A DNA stretch of 31,218 nt from Opitutales bacterium (GTDB lineage Bacteria; Verrucomicrobiota; Verrucomicrobiia; Opitutales; UBA9783): contig JAKSVZ010000010.1 in assembly GCA_024407725.1 (NCBI GenBank), forward strand, positions 1 to 31,218, given 5' to 3'. A program made the translations under genes and the position numbers. Within the stretch, counting starts at the first letter, position 1. Each line of letters begins with the position of its first letter. The notes under the pieces were generated by a model. It was given only the letters and a program-made list of their open reading frames with translations, searched no databases and had not been told where the DNA came from. Below are positions 20,278 through 28,526 of the stretch, in pieces.

Positions 20278-20729
20278 ACGTTCTGGGGTATTTGTGAAGC
20301 TTTGGCGATGTGATCCAGAATTCCATTGATAAAGCGTTTAGAGTCATCCGATGCATACGCTTTGCTTAACTCAATTGCTTCGTTGATAACAACCGGCTTC
20401 GGCGCCTTTTGAGAAAATTGCATTTCGTAAATAGCAAGGCGTAAAATCGCTAAGTCGATTTTGCTAATCCGCGAAAATTCCCAATGTTCTGCCTCTTGCG
20501 CTATCAGTTGATCAATCTGTTCGTAATGCGTTACTACACCGCGTAGGGTTTCCAACACAAAGGTTCCATTCAAAACCTCAGGAGCAATATCCGCCTTTTC
20601 TTTGCAGTAACGGGTATAAAGATTTTCAATGGAAATATCCTTTTGCACATCCCACATGTATAAACATTCCAAGATGCATTGACGCTGTTGATGACGGGTT
20701 GCAAATTTATGCGTGGGTTGAGCGACCAT
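20271..20729 (-). CDS. nusB: Transcription antitermination factor NusB
   Basis: 152 aa. It has ...DLAILRLAIYEM...VVINEAIELSKAY...FINGILDHIAK, which is typical for NusB. Confidence 0.88.
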   Translation of the reverse strand: MVAQPTHKFATRHQQRQCILECLYMWDVQKDISIENLYTRYCKEKADIAPEVLNGTFVLETLRGVVTHYEQIDQLIAQEAEHWEFSRISKIDLAILRLAIYEMQFSQKAPKPVVINEAIELSKAYASDDSKRFINGILDHIAKASQIPQNVC

Positions 20730-20775
20730 AAAAATCTATCAAAGATTTCCCTACAGTAGTGCTTAATCCTCGCGG

Positions 20776-20836
20776 TTGTCAACTGTATTACGCAGGGAGT
20801 TGCAACGTTGACAAGAGAAATGCCTCCTGTTGTATT
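20776..20836. promoter_or_regulatory. Divergent nusB/fabV control region with back-to-back TTGACA boxes and GTTGnCAAC-type palindromes
   Basis: TTGTCAAC (20776-20783) and GTTGACAA (20807-20814) form an inverted repeat, and each strand reads TTGACA. The perfect palindrome GTTGCAAC (20799-20806) abuts the second arm. On the plus strand the layout is TTGACA (20808-13), 17 nt, TGTATT (20831-36), 6 nt, then the ATG of fabV. Confidence 0.3.
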
Positions 20837-20842
20837 AAGCGT

Positions 20843-22036
20843 ATGATCATTGAACCAAAGGTACGTGGGTTTATCTGTATTACAGCGCACCCAACAGGAT
20901 GTTCAGCGCATGTTCAACAACAAGCTGATTTTGTACGTTCTCAACCAAAACTCATTAATGCCCCCAAACGGGTATTGATTATCGGTGCTTCTACCGGTTA
21001 TGGGCTTGCAAGCCGTATTGTCAGTGTTGCAGGAGCGCACGCTAGTACCTTCGGTGTATTTTTCGAACGCCCAGCAGATGGCGACAGAACTGCTTCTGCC
21101 GGATGGTACAACACGGTAGCATTGGAACAAATCGCGGACAAAGAAAACATTCCGTTTTACTCAATGAATGGCGATGCGTTTTCAGCCGAATTTAAGCAAA
21201 AAGCACTAGAAGCCATCAAACATACCTTAGGAACCGTTGACTGTGTCATTTACAGCCTTGCTGCACCGCGTAGAACGGACAAGGATGGTAATACCTACAA
21301 GTCGGTTTTAAAGCCGATCGGAAAGCAATTTACCGGCAAAACGGTCAATACGGATAATGGTAAAGTATACGATGTGAGTATCGATCCTGCGACAGAAGAC
21401 GAATTAAAAGCTACTGTTAAAGTAATGGGGGGAGAAGATTGGGCGGACTGGATGCATGCGTTAGCAGATGCGCATTTATTGGCACCTAATGTTACCGCCT
21501 TAGCATATTCCTATATTGGCCCTGAAGTAACGTGGCCGATTTATAAATCCGGTACGATTGGACAAGCCAAAGCACACCTGATGAAAACCGCGCAGGAGTT
21601 AAATGAATTTTTGGGTAAAGAGCTGCAAGGGCGGGCATTGATTTCCGTTAATAAAGCAGTTGTCACTCAAGCAAGCTCAGCCATTCCGGTTGTTCCCTTG
21701 TACAATTCCATTCTGTTCAAAATTATGAAGGCAAAGAGGCTGCATGAGGATTGCATTCAGCAAATGTATCGCTTATTTGCAGGACTTTTTGATCAGAAAC
21801 CGTTGCAAGTAGATAATGCTACCTGTGTGCGTTTGGATGACTGGGAATTGAATGAAGCAGTGCAAACGGAAGTTCGTACTATTTGGTCGCAAATTTCCAC
21901 CGAAAACCTAAAGGATTTAAGCGATTTTGAGGGTTATCAAAAAAGTTTTCTGCAGCTGTTTGGTTTCGAATGCGATGGGGTAGATTATGGTAAAGATGTC
22001 CCCATCGATTGCCTCATGAACCACCTAATGAGTTAA
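20843..22036 (+). CDS. fabV: Enoyl-[ACP] reductase FabV (trans-2-enoyl-CoA reductase family)
   Basis: The canonical FabV N-terminus is MIIEPKVRGFICITAHPTGC, followed by VLIIGASTGYGLASRI. The length from the ATG at 20843 is 397 aa. The ORF-track start at 20759 adds 28 atypical residues. Confidence 0.9.
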   Translation: MIIEPKVRGFICITAHPTGCSAHVQQQADFVRSQPKLINAPKRVLIIGASTGYGLASRIVSVAGAHASTFGVFFERPADGDRTASAGWYNTVALEQIADKENIPFYSMNGDAFSAEFKQKALEAIKHTLGTVDCVIYSLAAPRRTDKDGNTYKSVLKPIGKQFTGKTVNTDNGKVYDVSIDPATEDELKATVKVMGGEDWADWMHALADAHLLAPNVTALAYSYIGPEVTWPIYKSGTIGQAKAHLMKTAQELNEFLGKELQGRALISVNKAVVTQASSAIPVVPLYNSILFKIMKAKRLHEDCIQQMYRLFAGLFDQKPLQVDNATCVRLDDWELNEAVQTEVRTIWSQISTENLKDLSDFEGYQKSFLQLFGFECDGVDYGKDVPIDCLMNHLMS

Positions 22037-22881
22037 TGACCACCGAAATCGACGCATTAATCCAACAAGTGCTGTCGGCGCAACAAGCTCTTGGAGAAGA
22101 GTTTTCGCAGTTATCGCCTGACACCTTAAAGGAATTTCTGCGCAACGAACAAGCGTTGTTATCAGGCGATAATAAGGCTCAACAGAGCACCGTTAAGGCT
22201 GAAAAAGCCAAAGCCAAGGCCAAAGAAACTCCCTTAGTAGACAAAATCAAATTACCCGACGGGTCTAAAGAGGAGCAATGGCGTTGGTTAAAAGAGCAGG
22301 TTTTGTCCAATCCTGATTGCTTAAAGCATGTTTATCCCGGCAAACAATTGGTGTTTGGCAGCGGAAATTTAGATGCCGACTTGTTCTTTTGCGGCGAAGC
22401 ACCCGGAGCCGATGAAGAAGAGCAAGGGGAGGTGTTTGTCGGACGGGCAGGACAATTACTGACCAAAATTATTGCGGCTATGGGGCTAAAGCGCTCGGAT
22501 GTCTACATCGGGAACATCATGAATTGGCGCCCTGAAACCCCAGGGCACGTAGGCAACCGTCCACCGACACGCGAAGAAATGAAGTGGTGTTTGCCTTATC
22601 TTATCGGCCAAGTGGATATTGTACGTCCAAAAGCGATTGTTGCGTTGGGATTGACCGCTGTTAATGGCCTGCTGGGGTACGATCCCGATCGCCACATGAG
22701 CGATTGCCGCGGACGTTGGTTCCAGTTCAACCAAATCCCCCTGATGATCACCTACCATCCGTCGTATTTGCTCCGCAATGCAACCGCGAATTCCAAGCGC
22801 ATGGTATGGGAAGATATGCTGCAAGTAATGGAATTTTTAAAAATGCCTATATCAGAGCGGCAACGGCAGTATTTTTTATAA
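22036..22881 (+). CDS. Family-4 uracil-DNA glycosylase with an N-terminal extension of about 100 aa
   Basis: The motifs are FFCGEAPGADEEEQGEVFVGRAGQLL (GEAPG..E) and ITYHPSYLLRN (HPS.LLR). The ATG at 22036 overlaps the fabV stop (TAATG). The extension contains KAEKAKAKAKE. Confidence 0.85.
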   Translation: MTTEIDALIQQVLSAQQALGEEFSQLSPDTLKEFLRNEQALLSGDNKAQQSTVKAEKAKAKAKETPLVDKIKLPDGSKEEQWRWLKEQVLSNPDCLKHVYPGKQLVFGSGNLDADLFFCGEAPGADEEEQGEVFVGRAGQLLTKIIAAMGLKRSDVYIGNIMNWRPETPGHVGNRPPTREEMKWCLPYLIGQVDIVRPKAIVALGLTAVNGLLGYDPDRHMSDCRGRWFQFNQIPLMITYHPSYLLRNATANSKRMVWEDMLQVMEFLKMPISERQRQYFL

Positions 22882-22943
22882 CATTCAGATAAACTTTTAT
22901 TGGCTTTTGTCACTAATCGCACTACCATTAATCCAATTTATTT

Positions 22944-23609
22944 ATGAGTACGCTAGATAGCTATTTAAAACAACTTGAGCAAAATGATGCATTTTTCATG
23001 CACATGCCTAAAAAATTAATTTGGTTAAGTGGAGCCCCCGGAGCAGGAAAGGGAACGAATACCCAATATATTATTGATAATGCCCATTTGTACAAAGAAC
23101 CCGTTGTGGTAAGTTCATTGTTAAAAACGCCTGAGATGCGCGAAAAAATCAACAAAGGGATTTTGTTGGACGATGAAGTAGTAACCAAAGCACTATTTGA
23201 AGAATTGCAAAAACCCATCTATCAACAAGGCATAGTGGTTGACGGGTTCCCGCGCAAAGAGGGACAAGCGAAATGCATAGAGTGGTTATATCAAAACCTA
23301 AAAGCGCGTAATTTGAATCCCCAATTTTCCATTATCACGTTAATGGTTTCTGAGGAAGAAAGTGTTAAGCGTCAAATACACCGCGGTCAATTAGCTCAAC
23401 AACAGGCTAACGGTAAGGAAGAAGTACGTGCAACCGATCTAGATCCAAAGCTGGTTCGTGAGCGCTACCAAACTTTTATGAAAGAAACCTATGGTGCGTT
23501 GCAATTATTAGAAGGGAAAATCCCATTTTCAACGATTGACGCCGGCGGCACGTTTGACGAAGTAAAGCAGCACGTTTTGGATGCATTACACACATTAAAG
23601 TTGATGTAA
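22944..23609 (+). CDS. Adenylate-kinase-family nucleoside monophosphate kinase-like protein (cytoplasmic copy)
   Basis: 221 aa. It has the P-loop LSGAPGAGKGTNTQ, the motif VVDGFPRKEGQA (DGFPR) and a short LID-like HRGQ...RATDLDP. The NMP-site motif is SSLLK instead of the canonical sTGdllR. Confidence 0.8.
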   Translation: MSTLDSYLKQLEQNDAFFMHMPKKLIWLSGAPGAGKGTNTQYIIDNAHLYKEPVVVSSLLKTPEMREKINKGILLDDEVVTKALFEELQKPIYQQGIVVDGFPRKEGQAKCIEWLYQNLKARNLNPQFSIITLMVSEEESVKRQIHRGQLAQQQANGKEEVRATDLDPKLVRERYQTFMKETYGALQLLEGKIPFSTIDAGGTFDEVKQHVLDALHTLKLM

Positions 23610-24476
23610 TCCCAACCTAAGTTTCAATAATCGATATGCATTACAAAAAATTAATCTTATTAGGCGCTATCATGTTTCAGGGACTTTGCGGATTTGGAGA
23701 ATCCACAAACCAAAACACGTTAGAAACCTATTTAAAACGACTCGAACAGGATGATTCGTTTTTTACACGCATCCCTAAGAAGATAATTTGGTTAAGCGGA
23801 GCTCCTGGAGCCGGTAAAGGAACCAACACACAAACGATTATCGAAAACGCTCATTTGTACAAAGAGCCCGTTGTGGTAAGTTCGTTGCTAAAAACGCCTG
23901 AAATGCGCGAAAAAATCAACAAAGGGATTTTGATAGACGACGAAGTTGTTGTAAAAGTCTTATTTGCAGAATTGCAAAAACCTATCTATCAACAAGGCAT
24001 TGTGATTGATGGATTTCCTCGCAAAGAAGGACAAGCGAAATGCATAGAGTGGTTATATCAAAACCTAAAAGCGCGTAATTTAAACCCGCAATTTTCTGTT
24101 ATCACGTTAATGGTTTCTGAAGAAGAAAGCGTTAAACGTCAGTTGCACCGCGGCCAATTAGCTCAACAACAGGCTAACGGCAAGGAAGAAGTACGTGCAA
24201 CGGACTTAGACCCTGAATTAGTCAGAAATCGTTACAAAACCTTCATGAAGGAAACCTACAGCGCCTTGCAATTATTAGAGAAAAAGATCCCATTTGTAAC
24301 GATTGACGCCAGCGGGTCGTTTGATGAAGTAAAACAGCAGGTTTTGGATGCATTACACACTTTAAAGTTGATGTAATCCCAACCGCGTTTTAAACAATCA
24401 GGGGTATATGCATTACGGGTGGGTCGTCTTATGTGTCGTTACCCTGCTTGAGGGATTAAGCGGATTCGGACGAACC
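22950..24476 (+). repeat. Tandem direct duplication with a unit of about 767-772 bp (kinase body + short spacer + first ~23 codons of the MFS gene)
   Basis: Copy A is about 22950-23704 and copy B about 23717-24476. Both kinase stops are followed by TAATCCCAACC, then a 15- or 20-nt spacer, then ATGCATTAC. The downstream 69 nt encode MHY+11aa+(Q/E)GL(C/S)GFG in both copies. Confidence 0.8.
23636..24376 (+). CDS. Adenylate-kinase-family kinase-like protein, a paralogue carrying an N-terminal signal peptide or signal anchor
   Basis: 246 aa. Residues 28-246 differ from copy 1 at 27 of 219 positions by my manual count. The additional N-terminus is MHYKKLILLGAIMFQGLCGFGEST (KK, then a hydrophobic core). 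Confidence 0.8.
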   Translation: MHYKKLILLGAIMFQGLCGFGESTNQNTLETYLKRLEQDDSFFTRIPKKIIWLSGAPGAGKGTNTQTIIENAHLYKEPVVVSSLLKTPEMREKINKGILIDDEVVVKVLFAELQKPIYQQGIVIDGFPRKEGQAKCIEWLYQNLKARNLNPQFSVITLMVSEEESVKRQLHRGQLAQQQANGKEEVRATDLDPELVRNRYKTFMKETYSALQLLEKKIPFVTIDASGSFDEVKQQVLDALHTLKLM

Positions 24477-25613
24477 ATAGCTCTCAGCCCGTTATTGCAA
24501 GACCTCTGTAATGATTTATCCCTGTCTATGACGCAAATCAGCAGTGGGTACGCCTTATCCCACTTGTGTGCTGTATTTGTGCTCCCTTTTATCGGAAAAC
24601 TGTACGATAAAATCCCAACCTCAAGATTCCTGCTATTCTTTGTCTTGTTGTTTGGTGGATCGTTCATCTTACTCAGCCAAATCGCCAACCTCGCGCTGTC
24701 CCCATTAGGTTCGGTGGGGATGATTTTGCTTGGTTACATAGGGATTCGCTTGTCGGTACATTCGTATTCCATTGCCGGACGGTCAACCATTGCCGTGTGG
24801 TTTTCGCATCAACGAGGAATCGCGGTCGGTTGCTACGCGTTATTTACCATGTTAATTGGATCCATGGTTCCCTCGATCATCTATGGGCTGCGGCAACGTT
24901 ATCATTGGTCTCATATATGGCTAACCATAGGACTGTTGTGGTTTTTAATGGGCAGCATCTGCTTTTTGGTCAAATCACACAATCGCGTTGTAGATAACAC
25001 CAGTTGCTCTTCAAACGAACCAACAATGGGCACTTTAAGGCCGTTTTTGTTTATATTTGTCATGATTACGCTGTTCTTTAAGGCCTTTCAAAACAGCGGT
25101 ATTATGCTGCACCTATTTCCTATGTGCACCGATTTTGGGGCAGATAAAAAACTCATCTCCTTGTGCTTCATGCCCATCTACATAGTATCTAGCCTATGCA
25201 CGTTTATATTTGGGCATATTTTTAAGCAAAACAAGGCCAAAGGAGCACTATTTCTCTTTATTTTTGCGGACTTAGGAATGCTGATTGCACTTAAAGGAAT
25301 TGCTCATACAAGCGCCATCATCGCCTTTGTGCTATTTACCAGCATCTATTGGAGCATGAATAACATTGTAGCCACCTTGGTACTGCCCATCTTATTTGGG
25401 GTTAGGAAAATTGGCGCGCTACATGGATGGGCGTACGCTTTTGTTAGTTTGGGAAGCGCGGTTGGCTCGCTTTATTTTGGCCTTATGAAGGATTACGGTT
25501 CCTATCAACTCGGATTGTCGCTTTGTGTAGGATTTTCGCTGTTATTATTGCTCATTTTGTTGTGTTTAAAACCATCAAATTTTGTTCCTAATAACCCAAA
25601 TAATTTATCATGA
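24408..25613 (+). CDS. MFS transporter (12-TM type, substrate unknown)
   Basis: 401 aa and hydrophobic throughout. The TM2-3 loop is PFIGKLYDKIP (a G-x-x-x-D-[KR] motif-A remnant). There is a central hydrophilic loop (KSHNRVVDNTSCSSNEPT). It is a paralogue of the next gene. Confidence 0.8.
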   Translation: MHYGWVVLCVVTLLEGLSGFGRTIALSPLLQDLCNDLSLSMTQISSGYALSHLCAVFVLPFIGKLYDKIPTSRFLLFFVLLFGGSFILLSQIANLALSPLGSVGMILLGYIGIRLSVHSYSIAGRSTIAVWFSHQRGIAVGCYALFTMLIGSMVPSIIYGLRQRYHWSHIWLTIGLLWFLMGSICFLVKSHNRVVDNTSCSSNEPTMGTLRPFLFIFVMITLFFKAFQNSGIMLHLFPMCTDFGADKKLISLCFMPIYIVSSLCTFIFGHIFKQNKAKGALFLFIFADLGMLIALKGIAHTSAIIAFVLFTSIYWSMNNIVATLVLPILFGVRKIGALHGWAYAFVSLGSAVGSLYFGLMKDYGSYQLGLSLCVGFSLLLLLILLCLKPSNFVPNNPNNLS

Positions 25614-26791
25614 AAGCTTGGTGGACGTTAGCCATAGTGGTACTGATTGAAAGTGCCAGTATGTTTGGACGGAGTTCCGCAGTTAGTCCATTTTTAAACG
25701 CCATTCATCAAGATTTATCGCTATCCGTTACCCAAATCAGTGGCGCATATTCCTTAGGGCATCTAGCAGCAAGTTTTCTATTACCGTATATCGGAAGATG
25801 GTACGATAAAACCTCACTTTGCGGATTCATGCGCTTTTTTGTGCTGTTGTTTGCGGGAACTTGGATGCTATTTGGGGCAGGATTAATCCAACTAGCCAAC
25901 CAAAGTTATCTATGTTTAGGAGCTCTAGGAGGGTGTTTCATTATCATTCGTCTATGCATTCAAACCTTCCATTTAGTCGACAGTGCGGTATTAGCTTCTG
26001 AATTCGATAAGTACAAAAAGCTAGCGATCGGATGCAGTGCCATTGCGAGTGCTCTTGTAGGTGCTTCATGCCCCTATATTTGTTATAGCATTAGCCAACA
26101 TATTAATTGGCAACGAGCGGCTTTTGGGTTAGGAACATTGTGGTTGGTATTTTTGATTCCAGCCGGATGGCTTATCAAAACACGGGAACGCGTATCGGCT
26201 CAACCTGTTAAGATGGATAATCCATCAAAGCAAGGGATTCTGTTTTATACCGTCCTATTCGCTCTTGGCTTTAAACATTTTCAGGAAAGCGGCATTGCCT
26301 TCCATTTGGTCCCCATATGCACCGAATTGGGAATCAACATACGCTATATGTTGATGGGAATGTTTATTATGACCTGCGTATCGTTAGGAATAACCTTTTT
26401 TGCCGGTCATATATTCTCTCGTTGGGGATGGAAAACAACGTTAGTTCTATTCTCCTTAACGGATATAGGCATGCTGTATGGGATTCATTCGATACACCAA
26501 CTGGGAATCTTACCCGTGCTAGTTGTTTGTACCGGATTATACTGGGGAATTAGTACCATCTTACCTCCTTTAGTGCTTCCAAAAATGTTCAGCGATAAAA
26601 AACTGGGGGCGCTTCAAGGAATGGCTTATTCGTTTATGAGCTTAGGAAGCGGACTTGGACCGTTTTATTTCGGTTGGATCAAGGATGTATCCTCTTACCA
26701 AACGGGACTGCGCATATGCATCGGCGTTGCGCTCTTAATGCCCCTTGTATTCCTTTACTTAAAGCCAACAAAATCCAACACTAATGGCTAA
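25610..26791 (+). CDS. MFS transporter, a divergent tandem paralogue of the preceding gene
   Basis: 393 aa. It is collinear with the upstream MFS. FGRSSAVSPFLNAIHQDLSLSVTQISGAYSLGHL aligns to FGRTIALSPLLQDLCNDLSLSMTQISSGYALSHL, and LGALQGMAYSFMSLGS aligns to IGALHGWAYAFVSLGS. The ATGA start overlaps the upstream stop. Confidence 0.8.
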   Translation: MKAWWTLAIVVLIESASMFGRSSAVSPFLNAIHQDLSLSVTQISGAYSLGHLAASFLLPYIGRWYDKTSLCGFMRFFVLLFAGTWMLFGAGLIQLANQSYLCLGALGGCFIIIRLCIQTFHLVDSAVLASEFDKYKKLAIGCSAIASALVGASCPYICYSISQHINWQRAAFGLGTLWLVFLIPAGWLIKTRERVSAQPVKMDNPSKQGILFYTVLFALGFKHFQESGIAFHLVPICTELGINIRYMLMGMFIMTCVSLGITFFAGHIFSRWGWKTTLVLFSLTDIGMLYGIHSIHQLGILPVLVVCTGLYWGISTILPPLVLPKMFSDKKLGALQGMAYSFMSLGSGLGPFYFGWIKDVSSYQTGLRICIGVALLMPLVFLYLKPTKSNTNG

Positions 26792-27404
26792 TAAACTCCA
26801 AATTATCCTGCATTATTTGGATCAAGCTTTTCCGAACCCCGAGCCTTCGCTGCAAGCCTCAACGCCCTTTGAAATCCTAATCGCGACGCTGTTATCGGCT
26901 CAATGCCATGATGAACAAGTAAATCGCGTGATGCCGAACTTAATGAACGCAGCCCATACTCCTCAGGAAATGCGCAAAGTGCCGGAAGCAACCCTCCAGA
27001 AGCTCATTTACTCCTGCGGATTTTTCAGAAACAAAGCGCGCGCCATCAAAGCCTTATCGGAACAATTGTGCGAGCGTTTTAATGGAGAAGTACCGTGCAC
27101 GTTTGACGACCTCGAAAGTTTACCGAGAGTAGGGCATAAAACCGCATCGGTGGTTATGGGGCACGCATTCGGACAATTTGCGTTTCCCGTGGATACCCAC
27201 ATTCATCGTTTGGCATTAAAGTGGGGGCTTAGTAAAGGCCCAAATGTTGAGCGAGTGGAACGCGATTTAAAGCGCATTTTTCCTCAAAATGATTGGTTTA
27301 AACGCCACTTGCAGCTGATTCTTTTTGGCCGCGCTTATTGCAACCGAACACAATGCAAACCAGAGCATTTGTGCTGCATCTGTAAAGCGTTGCAGGAGTT
27401 ATAA
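26784..27404 (+). CDS. nth: Endonuclease III (DNA-(apurinic or apyrimidinic site) lyase)
   Basis: 206 aa. It has the HhH-GPD motif LESLPRVGHKTASVVM, then FPVDTHIHRL, and a C-terminal Cys cluster CNRTQCKPEHLCCIC. The start overlaps the MFS stop by 8 nt. Confidence 0.92.
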   Translation: MANKLQIILHYLDQAFPNPEPSLQASTPFEILIATLLSAQCHDEQVNRVMPNLMNAAHTPQEMRKVPEATLQKLIYSCGFFRNKARAIKALSEQLCERFNGEVPCTFDDLESLPRVGHKTASVVMGHAFGQFAFPVDTHIHRLALKWGLSKGPNVERVERDLKRIFPQNDWFKRHLQLILFGRAYCNRTQCKPEHLCCICKALQEL

Positions 27405-27416
27405 AGAGGGTAGGGG

Positions 27417-28526
27417 TTACCCAATCGCTTGATAAATTCCGCCGCCAATTAAGCAATTTTTTCGATAAAATGCGATGGCCTGACCAACTGCCAAGGCACG
27501 TTGGGATTGATGAAACTCAATTGCTGCGGTAGTTTTATCCTTCCACTGCCACGTAATGCTTTGGGCACTATCGCGATAACGCGGCTTTGCCAATAGCACT
27601 TCGCCGTCGGTTGGCGGTTCCTCCAGCCAATTCAAAAAGCCAATCTGTGCGTTGGTAGCATAAAGTCCTTGGGTTGTTGGATGGTCAAACCCTACCACCA
27701 ACTGCCCATTGGTGTAATCTTTTGCAACCACAACGTAATGCTCAAAATCATGGTTCGACGGTAGCCCTATGCCCTTGCGTTGACCGATGGTATAACGATG
27801 CAAACCGCGATGAGTACCCAACACACGTCCATCAACATGGACAATTAGCCCTTCCTGATCCGGAATGTATTTCTCCAAAAAGGTTTGAATAGGGACATTG
27901 CTGCTACCGAGAAAACAAATTCCTTGGCTATCCTTGCGCTGAGCATTGGGCAAGCCTATCTCCTGCGCAATTTGACGTACCGTTTGCTTAGTTAAAGTCC
28001 CCAAAGGAAAATGCACGCATTCCAAATTGCTACGCTGTACCAAGCACAAAAAATAACTTTGGTCCTTCGTAGCATCGATGCCTTCATAAAGCGAAAAATG
28101 GTTCGAAACGGTGGATTTTTGGCAATAATGGCCGGTTGCTAGACCATCAAAACCTGCTTGGCGCATGTGTTCTACCAAGATACCAAATTTGATATATCGA
28201 TTGCACATAACATCGGGATTGGGCGTCTGTCCTGTGCGATAGCCTTCAATGAGGTAATCCACAACCTTTTGACGGTACACATCGATAAAATTGATGACCT
28301 GAAAGGGAATTTGTAGGTGTTCAGCGACCGAACGAGCGGACGCCAAATCCTCTTTCCATGGGCATTCTTTCCATAATTCCGTTTCGTTTTGCCACGAGCG
28401 AAAAAATACGCCTTCAACCGCATATCCTTCGCGTTTCAATAAATAAGCGGAAACGGCGCTATCCACGCCGCCCGATAAAGCTACTAAGATTTTTTTATTC
28501 GGTTGCAAGCGCTTCAGAAGATTCAA
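27417..28526 (-). CDS. mnmA: tRNA-specific 2-thiouridylase MnmA
   Basis: 369 aa. It has the PP-loop VALSGGVDSAVSAYLL, NPDVMCNRYIKF and ATGHY. The catalytic Cys context is DSQGICFLG. Confidence 0.93.
   Translation of the reverse strand: MNLLKRLQPNKKILVALSGGVDSAVSAYLLKREGYAVEGVFFRSWQNETELWKECPWKEDLASARSVAEHLQIPFQVINFIDVYRQKVVDYLIEGYRTGQTPNPDVMCNRYIKFGILVEHMRQAGFDGLATGHYCQKSTVSNHFSLYEGIDATKDQSYFLCLVQRSNLECVHFPLGTLTKQTVRQIAQEIGLPNAQRKDSQGICFLGSSNVPIQTFLEKYIPDQEGLIVHVDGRVLGTHRGLHRYTIGQRKGIGLPSNHDFEHYVVVAKDYTNGQLVVGFDHPTTQGLYATNAQIGFLNWLEEPPTDGEVLLAKPRYRDSAQSITWQWKDKTTAAIEFHQSQRALAVGQAIAFYRKNCLIGGGIYQAIG

Follow-up and report, generated by a model that had tools for sequence, protein, structure and literature searches.

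The contig JAKSVZ010000010.1 of the Opitutales assembly GCA_024407725.1, whose 31,218 nucleotides (nt) are referred to below as the window, carries on its forward strand two adjacent genes for an adenylate-kinase-like enzyme, followed by a gene for a transporter of the major facilitator superfamily (MFS). The second kinase gene (copy 2, recorded under the Opitutales metagenome-assembled genome (MAG) GCA_024500545.1) bears an N-terminal leader that copy 1 lacks. Copy 2 is a genuine chimeric gene formed at the junction of a tandem duplication. Overall, we have good confidence in an explanation in which a duplication fused the start of the transporter to the kinase, the leader was remodelled into a Sec signal, copy 2 was relocalised, and a parallel event took place in a sister clade. 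The features of the locus are as follows (aa, amino acids; ORF, open reading frame).

22944 to 23609, forward strand: kinase copy 1, 221 aa, leaderless, with an ancestral-type N-terminus MSTLD... (ORF; Pfam ADK PF00406)
22950 to 23716, forward strand: tandem repeat unit A, 767 nt, reaching from kinase codon 3 across stop codon and spacer to leader codon 27 (direct repeat, alignment and register table)
23607 to 23635, forward strand: first copy (A) of the duplicated post-stop segment, TAATCCCAACC followed by an 18-nt spacer
23636 to 23707, forward strand: leader of kinase copy 2, codons 1-24, MHYKKLILLGAIMFQGLCGFGEST, from codons 1-24 of MFS transporter 1 (its first transmembrane helix, TM1), now signal-peptide-like
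23708 to 23722, forward strand: junction zone, codons 25-29 of copy 2, N Q N T L, with donor and acceptor alike (AGY NCG YTA)
23636 to 24376, forward strand: kinase copy 2, 246 aa, NCBI MCQ2956078.1, chimeric ORF of leader plus full kinase domain
23717 to 24488, forward strand: tandem repeat unit B, 772 nt, from copy 2 codon 28 through the stop codon and spacer to MFS1 codon 27
24374 to 24407, forward strand: second copy (B) of the duplicated post-stop segment, TAATCCCAACC followed by a 23-nt spacer including GGGGT, which is missing from copy A
24408 to 25613, forward strand: MFS transporter 1 (MFS1), 401 aa, of which codons 1-24 (24408-24479; MHYGWVVLCVVTLLEGLSGFGRTI, TM1) are the leader donor
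25610 to 26791, forward strand: MFS transporter 2 (MFS2), 393 aa, an older tandem paralogue in which the TM1 motif E..S.FGR is retained
23262 to 23314 in copy 1, equal to 24029 to 24081 in copy 2, forward strand: identical tract of 53 nt (100% identity), probably a gene-conversion tract

A chimeric gene at a tandem-duplication junction

The two kinase proteins are identical at 192 of 220 positions (87%) with no gaps (BLASTP, E=2e-150), close to the ~88% (27 differences in 219 residues) given in the original prediction for this DNA, and their kinase cores share 83% nucleotide identity. The repeat does not end with the kinase coding sequence but takes in its stop codon, the spacer and the opening ~24-27 codons of the MFS gene that follows; its units (direct-repeat family D1) show a spacing of 767 and then 772, in agreement with the tandem duplication of about 770 bp that had been proposed. 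After both kinase stop codons we found the 11-mer TAATCCCAACC, a partly identical spacer and then ATATGCATTAC. The spacer between the 11-mer and the ATG measures 18 nt after copy 1 and 23 nt after copy 2, so that the duplication of the post-stop sequence and the 5-nt difference originally described both stand, whereas the spacer lengths of 15 and 20 nt do not. The spacer before MFS1 (24396-24407) has a Shine-Dalgarno-like GGGGT, which a 5-nt indel removes before copy 2 (23624-23635). The shared ATG starts MFS1 (MHYGWVVLCVVTLLEGLSGFGRTI) after copy 2 and starts copy 2 itself (MHYKKLILLGAIMFQGLCGFGEST) after copy 1.

In a codon-by-codon register table the MFS similarity continues through codon 24 of copy 2, and the kinase similarity is unambiguous from codon 28, which corresponds to codon 3 of copy 1. 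At codons 27-29 the MFS gene reads AGC CCG TTA, the kinase AGT ACG CTA and the chimera AAC ACG TTA, all alike; copy 2 matches the MFS gene at 7/9 of these positions and codons 2-4 of copy 1 at 6/9. The alignment places the join within 23708-23722 (codons 25-29 of copy 2), possibly at microhomology; the fusion is in frame, as predicted, and the exact joining of MFS codons 1-23 to kinase codon 3 gives way to this zone. The units stand head to tail and are bounded inside two adjacent, co-oriented genes, and the junction ORF consists of MFS codons 1-~24/27 joined in frame to kinase codons ~2/3-221, with copy 1 and MFS1 both of full length. These observations establish the duplication-fusion step. 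A tandem duplication of ~770 nt had one end near kinase codon 3 and the other near codon 24-27 of the adjoining downstream MFS gene; its join point yielded an in-frame chimera of the MFS 5' end (start codon plus TM1) and the complete kinase, leaving the original kinase and the original MFS gene intact on either side.

The leader and the start of MFS1 (24408-24479) are identical at 47/72 nt in register, and at 38/63 when the shared ATGCATTAC is set aside, the third codon positions matching best (15/21). The register was fixed beforehand by the shared stop-proximal 11-mer and ATATGCATTAC. At an expected match rate of 0.25 the 38/63 match has a binomial P of 3e-9; the best score among 9,975 other in-frame 63-nt windows of the 32 long ORFs in the window was 30, and hydrophobic control windows (n=778) gave a mean of 17.6 (standard deviation 3.6) and a maximum of 29. 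Because the match exceeds all control windows, the leader is homologous to the MFS 5' end beyond shared hydrophobicity, and the comparison with random hydrophobic segments that had been suggested as a check thus comes out in favour of homology. Moreover, the motif E..S.FGR / EGLSGxGR is present in MFS2 of the window and in the MFS genes of the distant loci L021, L026 and L027 (loci of other genomes are given here by L numbers), which assigns it to the transporter family, as had been supposed; EGLSGxGR(T) is conserved in MFS orthologues and in the distant L021-type genes.

The kinases score 54.7 (copy 1) and 61.3 bits (copy 2) against Pfam ADK PF00406 (cut-off 26.8). Above this gathering threshold, and with a P-loop GxPGxGKGT and a DGFPR motif, they belong to the nucleoside monophosphate (NMP) kinase superfamily. 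Invariant in 43 family members are the P-loop G55-T63 (GAPGAGKGT), DGFPR D125-R129, R168, R172, R187, D190 and R199. A structure of copy 2 was predicted with AlphaFold from a homologue alignment in which one L006 sequence was left out (mean predicted local distance difference test score, pLDDT, 86.9; predicted template-modelling score 0.82), with a confident kinase fold from residue 22 onward; in this predicted structure the three-layer NMP-kinase fold is found with NMP-binding and LID segments. The top Foldseek matches were AK1, UMP/CMP kinase and Mycobacterium tuberculosis Adk (E ~1e-10), the template-modelling score (target-normalised) to short-LID AK1 and UMP/CMP kinase being ~0.78-0.80. 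The ratio of nonsynonymous to synonymous divergence (dN/dS) between the copies is 0.08, and the copy-specific amino-acid changes, 9 in copy 1 and 13 in copy 2, are mostly conservative; judged by these values, both copies are under purifying selection.

Around the kinases the gene order comprises FabV and a family-4-type uracil-DNA glycosylase (UDG) upstream, and two MFS genes followed by Nth downstream. Both transporters are members of the MFS superfamily (Pfam MFS_1: 58.2 bits for MFS1 and 66.8 bits for MFS2, cut-off 33.4), with ~39% identity between them by tblastn; they are old tandem paralogues with an ATGA stop/start overlap at 25610-25613. MFS2 and nth overlap by 8 nt, and the whole FabV-to-Nth block is tightly packed. 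A promoter and terminator scan of 20500-27600 gave counts no higher than those of shuffled sequences and nothing between the kinase copies; therefore we make no claim of separate regulation.

Single-copy relatives and a second fusion in a sister clade

Four independent related assemblies, represented by L001/L002, L005, L013 and L014 (UBA3869), carry the UDG gene, one leaderless kinase that is 85-89% identical to the window kinase, and an MFS gene starting MHYGW, a start conserved in L001, L005, L013 and L014. Taken by itself, copy 1 shares 86-89% identity with the orthologues of L001, L005 and L013. The full order FabV-UDG-kinase-MFS-MFS-Nth is found in L001/L002, L013 and L014, the contig of L005 being too short. 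This is the single kinase followed directly by the transporter that had been put forward as the ancestral state. In the distant loci L021, L026 and L027 (kinase ~50% identical) one kinase is followed by the same MFS family, with the motif EGLSGLGRT, and distant L023 has one kinase with MFS similarity by tblastn; in these four loci the arrangement was seen in part, on shorter stretches. The unduplicated arrangement is thus present in both near and distant relatives, and since the distant ones also have one kinase and then the MFS gene, the single-copy kinase-MFS adjacency is ancestral at depth. A leader-bearing kinase away from its donor gene, which would have spoken against the proposed origin, was not found among the relatives examined.

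In a sister clade (clade B) the kinases are ~53% identical to those of the window, and the downstream gene encodes an SBP_bac_5 lipoprotein, not an MFS transporter. One kinase followed by the SBP gene is found in five species-level relatives (L010, L015, L016, L017 and L018), while tandem kinases are found in L006 (= L019; GCA_046881885.1) and also in L011 and L012, which come from two other assemblies. The clade-B loci compared are:

L006:7303-10437 (= L019), L011:3-2678 and L012: tandem kinase loci
L017:915-3167 and L018:2957-5252: single-copy loci

The second kinase of L006 (k2), a protein of 279 aa, starts with MKNKLVYIVLVSFLGLLGCSKK...GILFIGTGADSESLDPHCIS. Over its opening 57 codons it matches the corresponding 57 of the neighbouring SBP_bac_5 gene at 79% of nucleotides (135/171) and at 38/57 amino acids, and its similarity to the first kinase (k1) begins at k1 codon ~20. 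A canonical LLGC lipobox lies within the SBP-derived leader in k2 of both L006 and L011; clade-B k2 took the lipoprotein signal plus ~35 mature residues from the downstream SBP_bac_5 gene. Kinase pairs within one genome are 83-87% identical, and identity between the clades is at most 55%. Because the pairs are alike within a genome and each leader matches its own neighbour, the two clades represent two separate duplication events of like architecture.

Between L006 k2 and L011 k2 the synonymous divergence (dS) is 0.71 and dN/dS 0.09, and pN/pS in the clade-B leader is 0.41 for the signal part, which is more constrained than the linker (0.69). As judged from these ratios, the signal-bearing copy of clade B is old and under purifying selection across species-level divergence. 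The recurrence and this retention argue that an extracytoplasmic form of the kinase is useful to these gut Opitutales; a likely role would be the interconversion of extracellular or periplasmic nucleotides.

The leader, the destination of copy 2 and the age of the tandem state

Relative to an ancestral MFS start reconstructed from three orthologues, the leader of copy 2 has 28 substitutions in 63 nt, and its frame is still open. It gained KK at positions 4-5 (GW -> KK), giving an n-region MHYKK of charge +2; its 9-residue core LILLGAIMF has a Kyte-Doolittle value of 2.94, though 8/9 residues changed; the sole charged residue of the MFS helix is lost (E15 -> Q), residues 6-21 forming an uncharged run of 16; and the small-residue tail GLxGFG is kept. 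The -3/-1 rule is obeyed after leader residues 18, 19 and 21 (GLC|G, LCG|F and GFG|E). By these heuristics the leader has the features of a Sec-type signal (signal peptidase I), namely a charged n-region, an h-region within the usual 7-15 residues and, in a polar c-region, small residues at -3/-1, with values matching those of the bona fide clade-B lipoprotein signals, and in the AlphaFold prediction residues 1-22 of copy 2 have pLDDT <50 and lie outside the kinase fold. A lipoprotein (signal peptidase II) reading of the leader was tried and rejected: where the h-region ends the leader reads F-Q-G-L-C, with Leu at -1 and Gln at -3, and does not match the lipobox pattern [LVI][ASTVI][GAS]C. When 28 random substitutions were simulated under neutrality 200,000 times, the frame stayed open in 38% of the trials, and all of the leader criteria were matched in 7e-5 (n-region charge >=+2, core Kyte-Doolittle >=2.94, no charge at positions 6-21).

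The leader therefore looks, by its composition, like a cleavable Sec signal peptide and not like a transmembrane signal anchor. The statistics suggest that the captured TM1 was remodelled under selection into a Sec-type signal peptide, the intramembrane Glu becoming Gln and the GLxGFG tail now offering signal-peptidase-like sites. Sec would then carry copy 2 across the membrane, to be released or tethered in the periplasm, and copy 1 would stay in the cytoplasm. Copy 2 is thus most likely exported, a predicted relocalisation of the duplicated enzyme.

Such a location had been called odd for an NMP kinase; it appears less so in the light of the kinase family, which at E <=1e-3 comprises 2,105 representatives. 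Named sources are Opitutales, Puniceicoccales, Coraliomargarita and other Verrucomicrobia, often with ~405-aa forms that have a C-terminal extension. Besides the canonical lipoproteins of clade B, signal-like N-termini occur in the members P0015, P0126, P0130, P0153, P0159, P0208 and P0218, so that predicted extracytoplasmic members recur within the family. A reaction of the adenylate-kinase type (2 ADP = ATP + AMP) requires no ATP supply. Periplasmic ATP is measurable in Escherichia coli, and an ATP-consuming Ndk of Porphyromonas gingivalis modulates host ATP signalling (reviewed in PMC7432876); because both have been reported, a periplasmic nucleotide kinase is unusual, yet not implausible.

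Some of the signal-bearing members stand in unrelated contexts (L007:241-1128 for P0015, L032:5001-5861 for P0153 and L034:5001-5882 for P0130), and the P0153 contig carries a type III secretion SctD-like gene beside the kinase. A homologue search with the 92-aa leader of P0015 gave no match, and no co-oriented downstream donor was seen on its contig (L007). Long Ser/Thr/Arg-rich extensions resembling organellar transit peptides are found at the N-termini of P0148, P0164, P0165, P0167, P0185, P0192, P0193, P0206, P0213, P0216, P0230, P0232 and P0261; these members are possibly eukaryotic homologues. At L008:2754-6711 the genes before the kinase are nrdD-nrdG, for anaerobic ribonucleotide reductase, and not FabV-UDG, a neighbourhood that hints at a link with (deoxy)nucleotide metabolism, and the termite-gut Puniceicoccales loci L020, L022, L024, L025 and L030 are similar to L008 and likewise lack FabV-UDG neighbours.

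Several points weigh against the explanation given here. As regards the enzyme, the two copies score 76.5 and 85.6 bits against an NCBIfam adk cut-off of 187, and 73.5 and 81.6 against the 168 of TIGR01351; the NCBIfam adk equivalog cut-offs are all at least 154, with the kinase copies at 76-86 bits. Furthermore, the AMP-site TGDxLR is not conserved, the TGDMLR of AK2 facing KEPVVV in the hidden Markov model alignment; by these scores the window kinases are not housekeeping Adk. As regards the fusion, the window type was seen in one MAG only and its protein cluster, P0001, has one member: protein search, exact-protein look-up, metagenome scan and GTDB scan returned single-copy relatives only (the source MAG was not among the GTDB matches). 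As regards expression and export, copy 2 is without the GGGG Shine-Dalgarno-like element found before the MFS start, an in-frame ATG at its codon 13 (Met13; 23672) could start a leaderless product, and the simulation criteria were picked after the leader was seen, though they are textbook signal-peptide features. Finally, dS between copy 1 and copy 2 (0.98 +/- 0.16) is greater than that of the flanking genes FabV and UDG (0.24-0.28) between the window and the single-copy L001, for which kinase dS is 0.68-0.79 and MFS1 dS 0.56. It may be, then, that the single-copy neighbours are revertants or that recombination moved the segment, in which case they are not direct ancestors.

This last discrepancy also supports a different history, a serious possibility that we nevertheless do not favour, in which the tandem, leader-bearing state predates the lineages compared and the single-copy relatives arose by secondary collapse through recombination between the repeats. 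A conflicting patch at gene nt 33-63 (22976-23006), in which copy 1 equals L005 (AFFMHMP) and copy 2 equals L001 and L013 (SFFTRIP), is in keeping with it, as is clade B, where the single-copy L017 and L018 nest between the tandem L006 and L011 on synonymous distances of SBP and k1 (L006-L017 0.17-0.20, L006-L018 ~0.5, L006-L011 ~0.8); this nesting implies secondary loss of the exported copy or transfer by recombination. On the other hand, the distant relatives are all single-copy (L021, L023, L026 and L027; L010, L015 and L016), so that single copy is ancestral at depth, and the L017 kinase is 97.9% identical to L006 k1 over its full length, with no k2-derived part. An older tandem state would in any case shift the timing, not the mechanism. 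The tandem state is therefore old; secondary loss from certain lineages, or movement by homologous recombination, is probable, which alters the history of the duplication and leaves its mechanism as described.

Quartet site patterns pair copy 1 with copy 2 against L001 and L005 at 27 sites, the other two pairings having 7 and 13. The longest run of identity between the copies measures 53 nt, where permutations gave 26 on average (P=0.0017), and several sites of this region set both copies apart from L001 and L005; the tract probably reflects gene conversion between the copies. Dating by dS was tried and set aside as unreliable, given a dS of ~1, heterogeneous rates along the gene, the 53-nt tract and the conflicting quartets (27/7/13). 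The duplication is therefore not the clean, datable example that had been announced, the excess over the flanking genes and the mosaic N-terminal patch pointing the same way. Twelve substitutions specific to copy 1 cluster within 40 nt at 23439-23477 (nt 496-534). Divergence between window 20759-27404 and L001 5812-11704 is strongly mosaic, MFS2 being only 49.5% identical in amino acids and Nth 74%, and it seems that recombination or replacement gave the right-hand side of the locus a history of its own.

Concerning the leader, the original prediction had taken it for a TM1 signal anchor. If uncleaved, it would tether the kinase to the inner membrane facing the periplasm or, if inverted, in the cytoplasm beside the transporter. 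Its descent from a true N-in transmembrane helix, the N-terminal KK that fits the positive-inside rule and the uncharged run of 16 residues are as an anchor would have them. We nonetheless consider this unlikely: the 19-residue Kyte-Doolittle maximum is 1.36, below the 1.60 of MFS1 TM1, the strongly hydrophobic core, no more than 9 residues long, gives way to Q and to G-rich small residues, and three candidate sites fit the -3/-1 rule, all of which would suit a cleavable Sec signal better.

Alternatively, the fusion may be real and the leader a leftover, with copy 2 starting at Met13 or otherwise not exported and both enzymes cytoplasmic, kept for dosage or subfunctionalisation. The missing Shine-Dalgarno-like motif before the ATG at 23636, the ATG at codon 13, the restriction to one genome and the survival of an open 24-codon frame in 38% of neutral simulations would all agree with this. 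However, copy 1 is also without such a motif, so its absence is not diagnostic; the core remained hydrophobic through eight changes in nine residues while two Lys were gained and the Glu was lost, a combination as rare under neutrality as given above; and the signal captured in clade B is a conserved, canonical lipobox at a pN/pS of 0.41. A leftover leader is in our opinion improbable. Hardest of all to credit is that the likeness of leader and MFS1 reflects convergence of hydrophobic N-termini, or the tandem an assembly artefact of a MAG: both segments are indeed hydrophobic and the source is a metagenome-assembled contig, but the match stands in a fixed register, above all 778 hydrophobic controls and best at third positions; 17% of sites differ between the copies, and the junction ORF holds >60 nt of diverged sequence expected in no single-copy haplotype, which cannot come from misassembled single-copy strains; and another clade shows an analogous fusion in three assemblies that are independent of one another.

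Implications and comparison with known systems

We return to the reading in which copy 2 is an exported chimera. More tentatively, and with considerable doubt on our part, gut and rumen Opitutales might be under recurrent selection to export this non-canonical kinase, tandem duplication repeatedly copying the export signal of the gene that happens to stand downstream, the MFS TM1 in one clade and the SBP lipoprotein signal in the other. If so, there would be an undescribed periplasmic or surface step of nucleotide phosphorylation using extracytoplasmic ATP or ADP, and the first helix of a polytopic transporter would be convertible to a cleavable signal peptide in nature. Origins of export signals can seldom be traced, donor and recipient having as a rule diverged or become separated; here the adjacent donor, the unduplicated relatives and the independent replicate form a natural series of before, after and replicate. 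This series bears on gene birth at duplication junctions, on the passage from transmembrane helix to signal peptide and on relocalisation as a route to the retention of duplicates in bacteria. The finding also draws attention to a kinase family, so far uncharacterised and here seen mostly in Verrucomicrobia, in which several members bear signals; it would suggest nucleotide phosphotransfer beyond the cytoplasm of gut-associated bacteria, in whose surroundings extracellular ATP is an important signal of the host.

As for the enzyme itself, the window kinase shares with adenylate kinase and UMP-CMP kinase (PF00406, short-LID AK1) the P-loop, DGFPR, the LID-side Arg/Asp residues and the predicted fold; it differs from canonical adenylate kinase in falling below the NCBIfam adk cut-offs and in the TGDxLR region. 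Pseudomonas aeruginosa has a secreted adenylate kinase. This enzyme and the Ndk of P. gingivalis resemble the predicted products described here in being phosphotransferases outside the cytoplasm of a host-associated bacterium, whereas here export is predicted through a classical N-terminal Sec or lipoprotein signal of traceable origin.

Subcellular relocalisation of duplicates (neolocalisation) is documented in eukaryotes (PMC2790464, PMC4202327), where likewise one duplicate stays in its compartment while the other acquires a targeting sequence at its N-terminus and with it, presumably, a different compartment. The present case differs in that the organism is a bacterium, with the periplasm or outer membrane as the putative compartment, and in that the signal was copied from a neighbouring gene and did not arise de novo or by exon shuffling. 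A narrow literature search found no described bacterial equivalent, only eukaryotic or unrelated cases.

Join-point fusions were reportedly described by Anderson and Roth in laboratory tandem duplications of Salmonella, and chimeric genes at tandem-duplication join points are known from population surveys of Drosophila (PMC4069613). These chimeras have the same A - (5'B::3'A) - B structure with both parents intact. In contrast to them, the window case is fixed, old (dS ~1), selected and bacterial; what was captured is a targeting signal, its donor still lies alongside, and the event happened twice at the orthologous locus with different donors. The mechanism of join-point chimeras is thus already well known, and the recurrent bacterial case is new: a fixed chimera with a captured export signal and an adjacent donor, evolved twice at an orthologous locus from different donors. 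New as well, we infer, is the nature of one of these donors, the TM1 of a polytopic transporter that appears to have been remodelled into a signal peptide.

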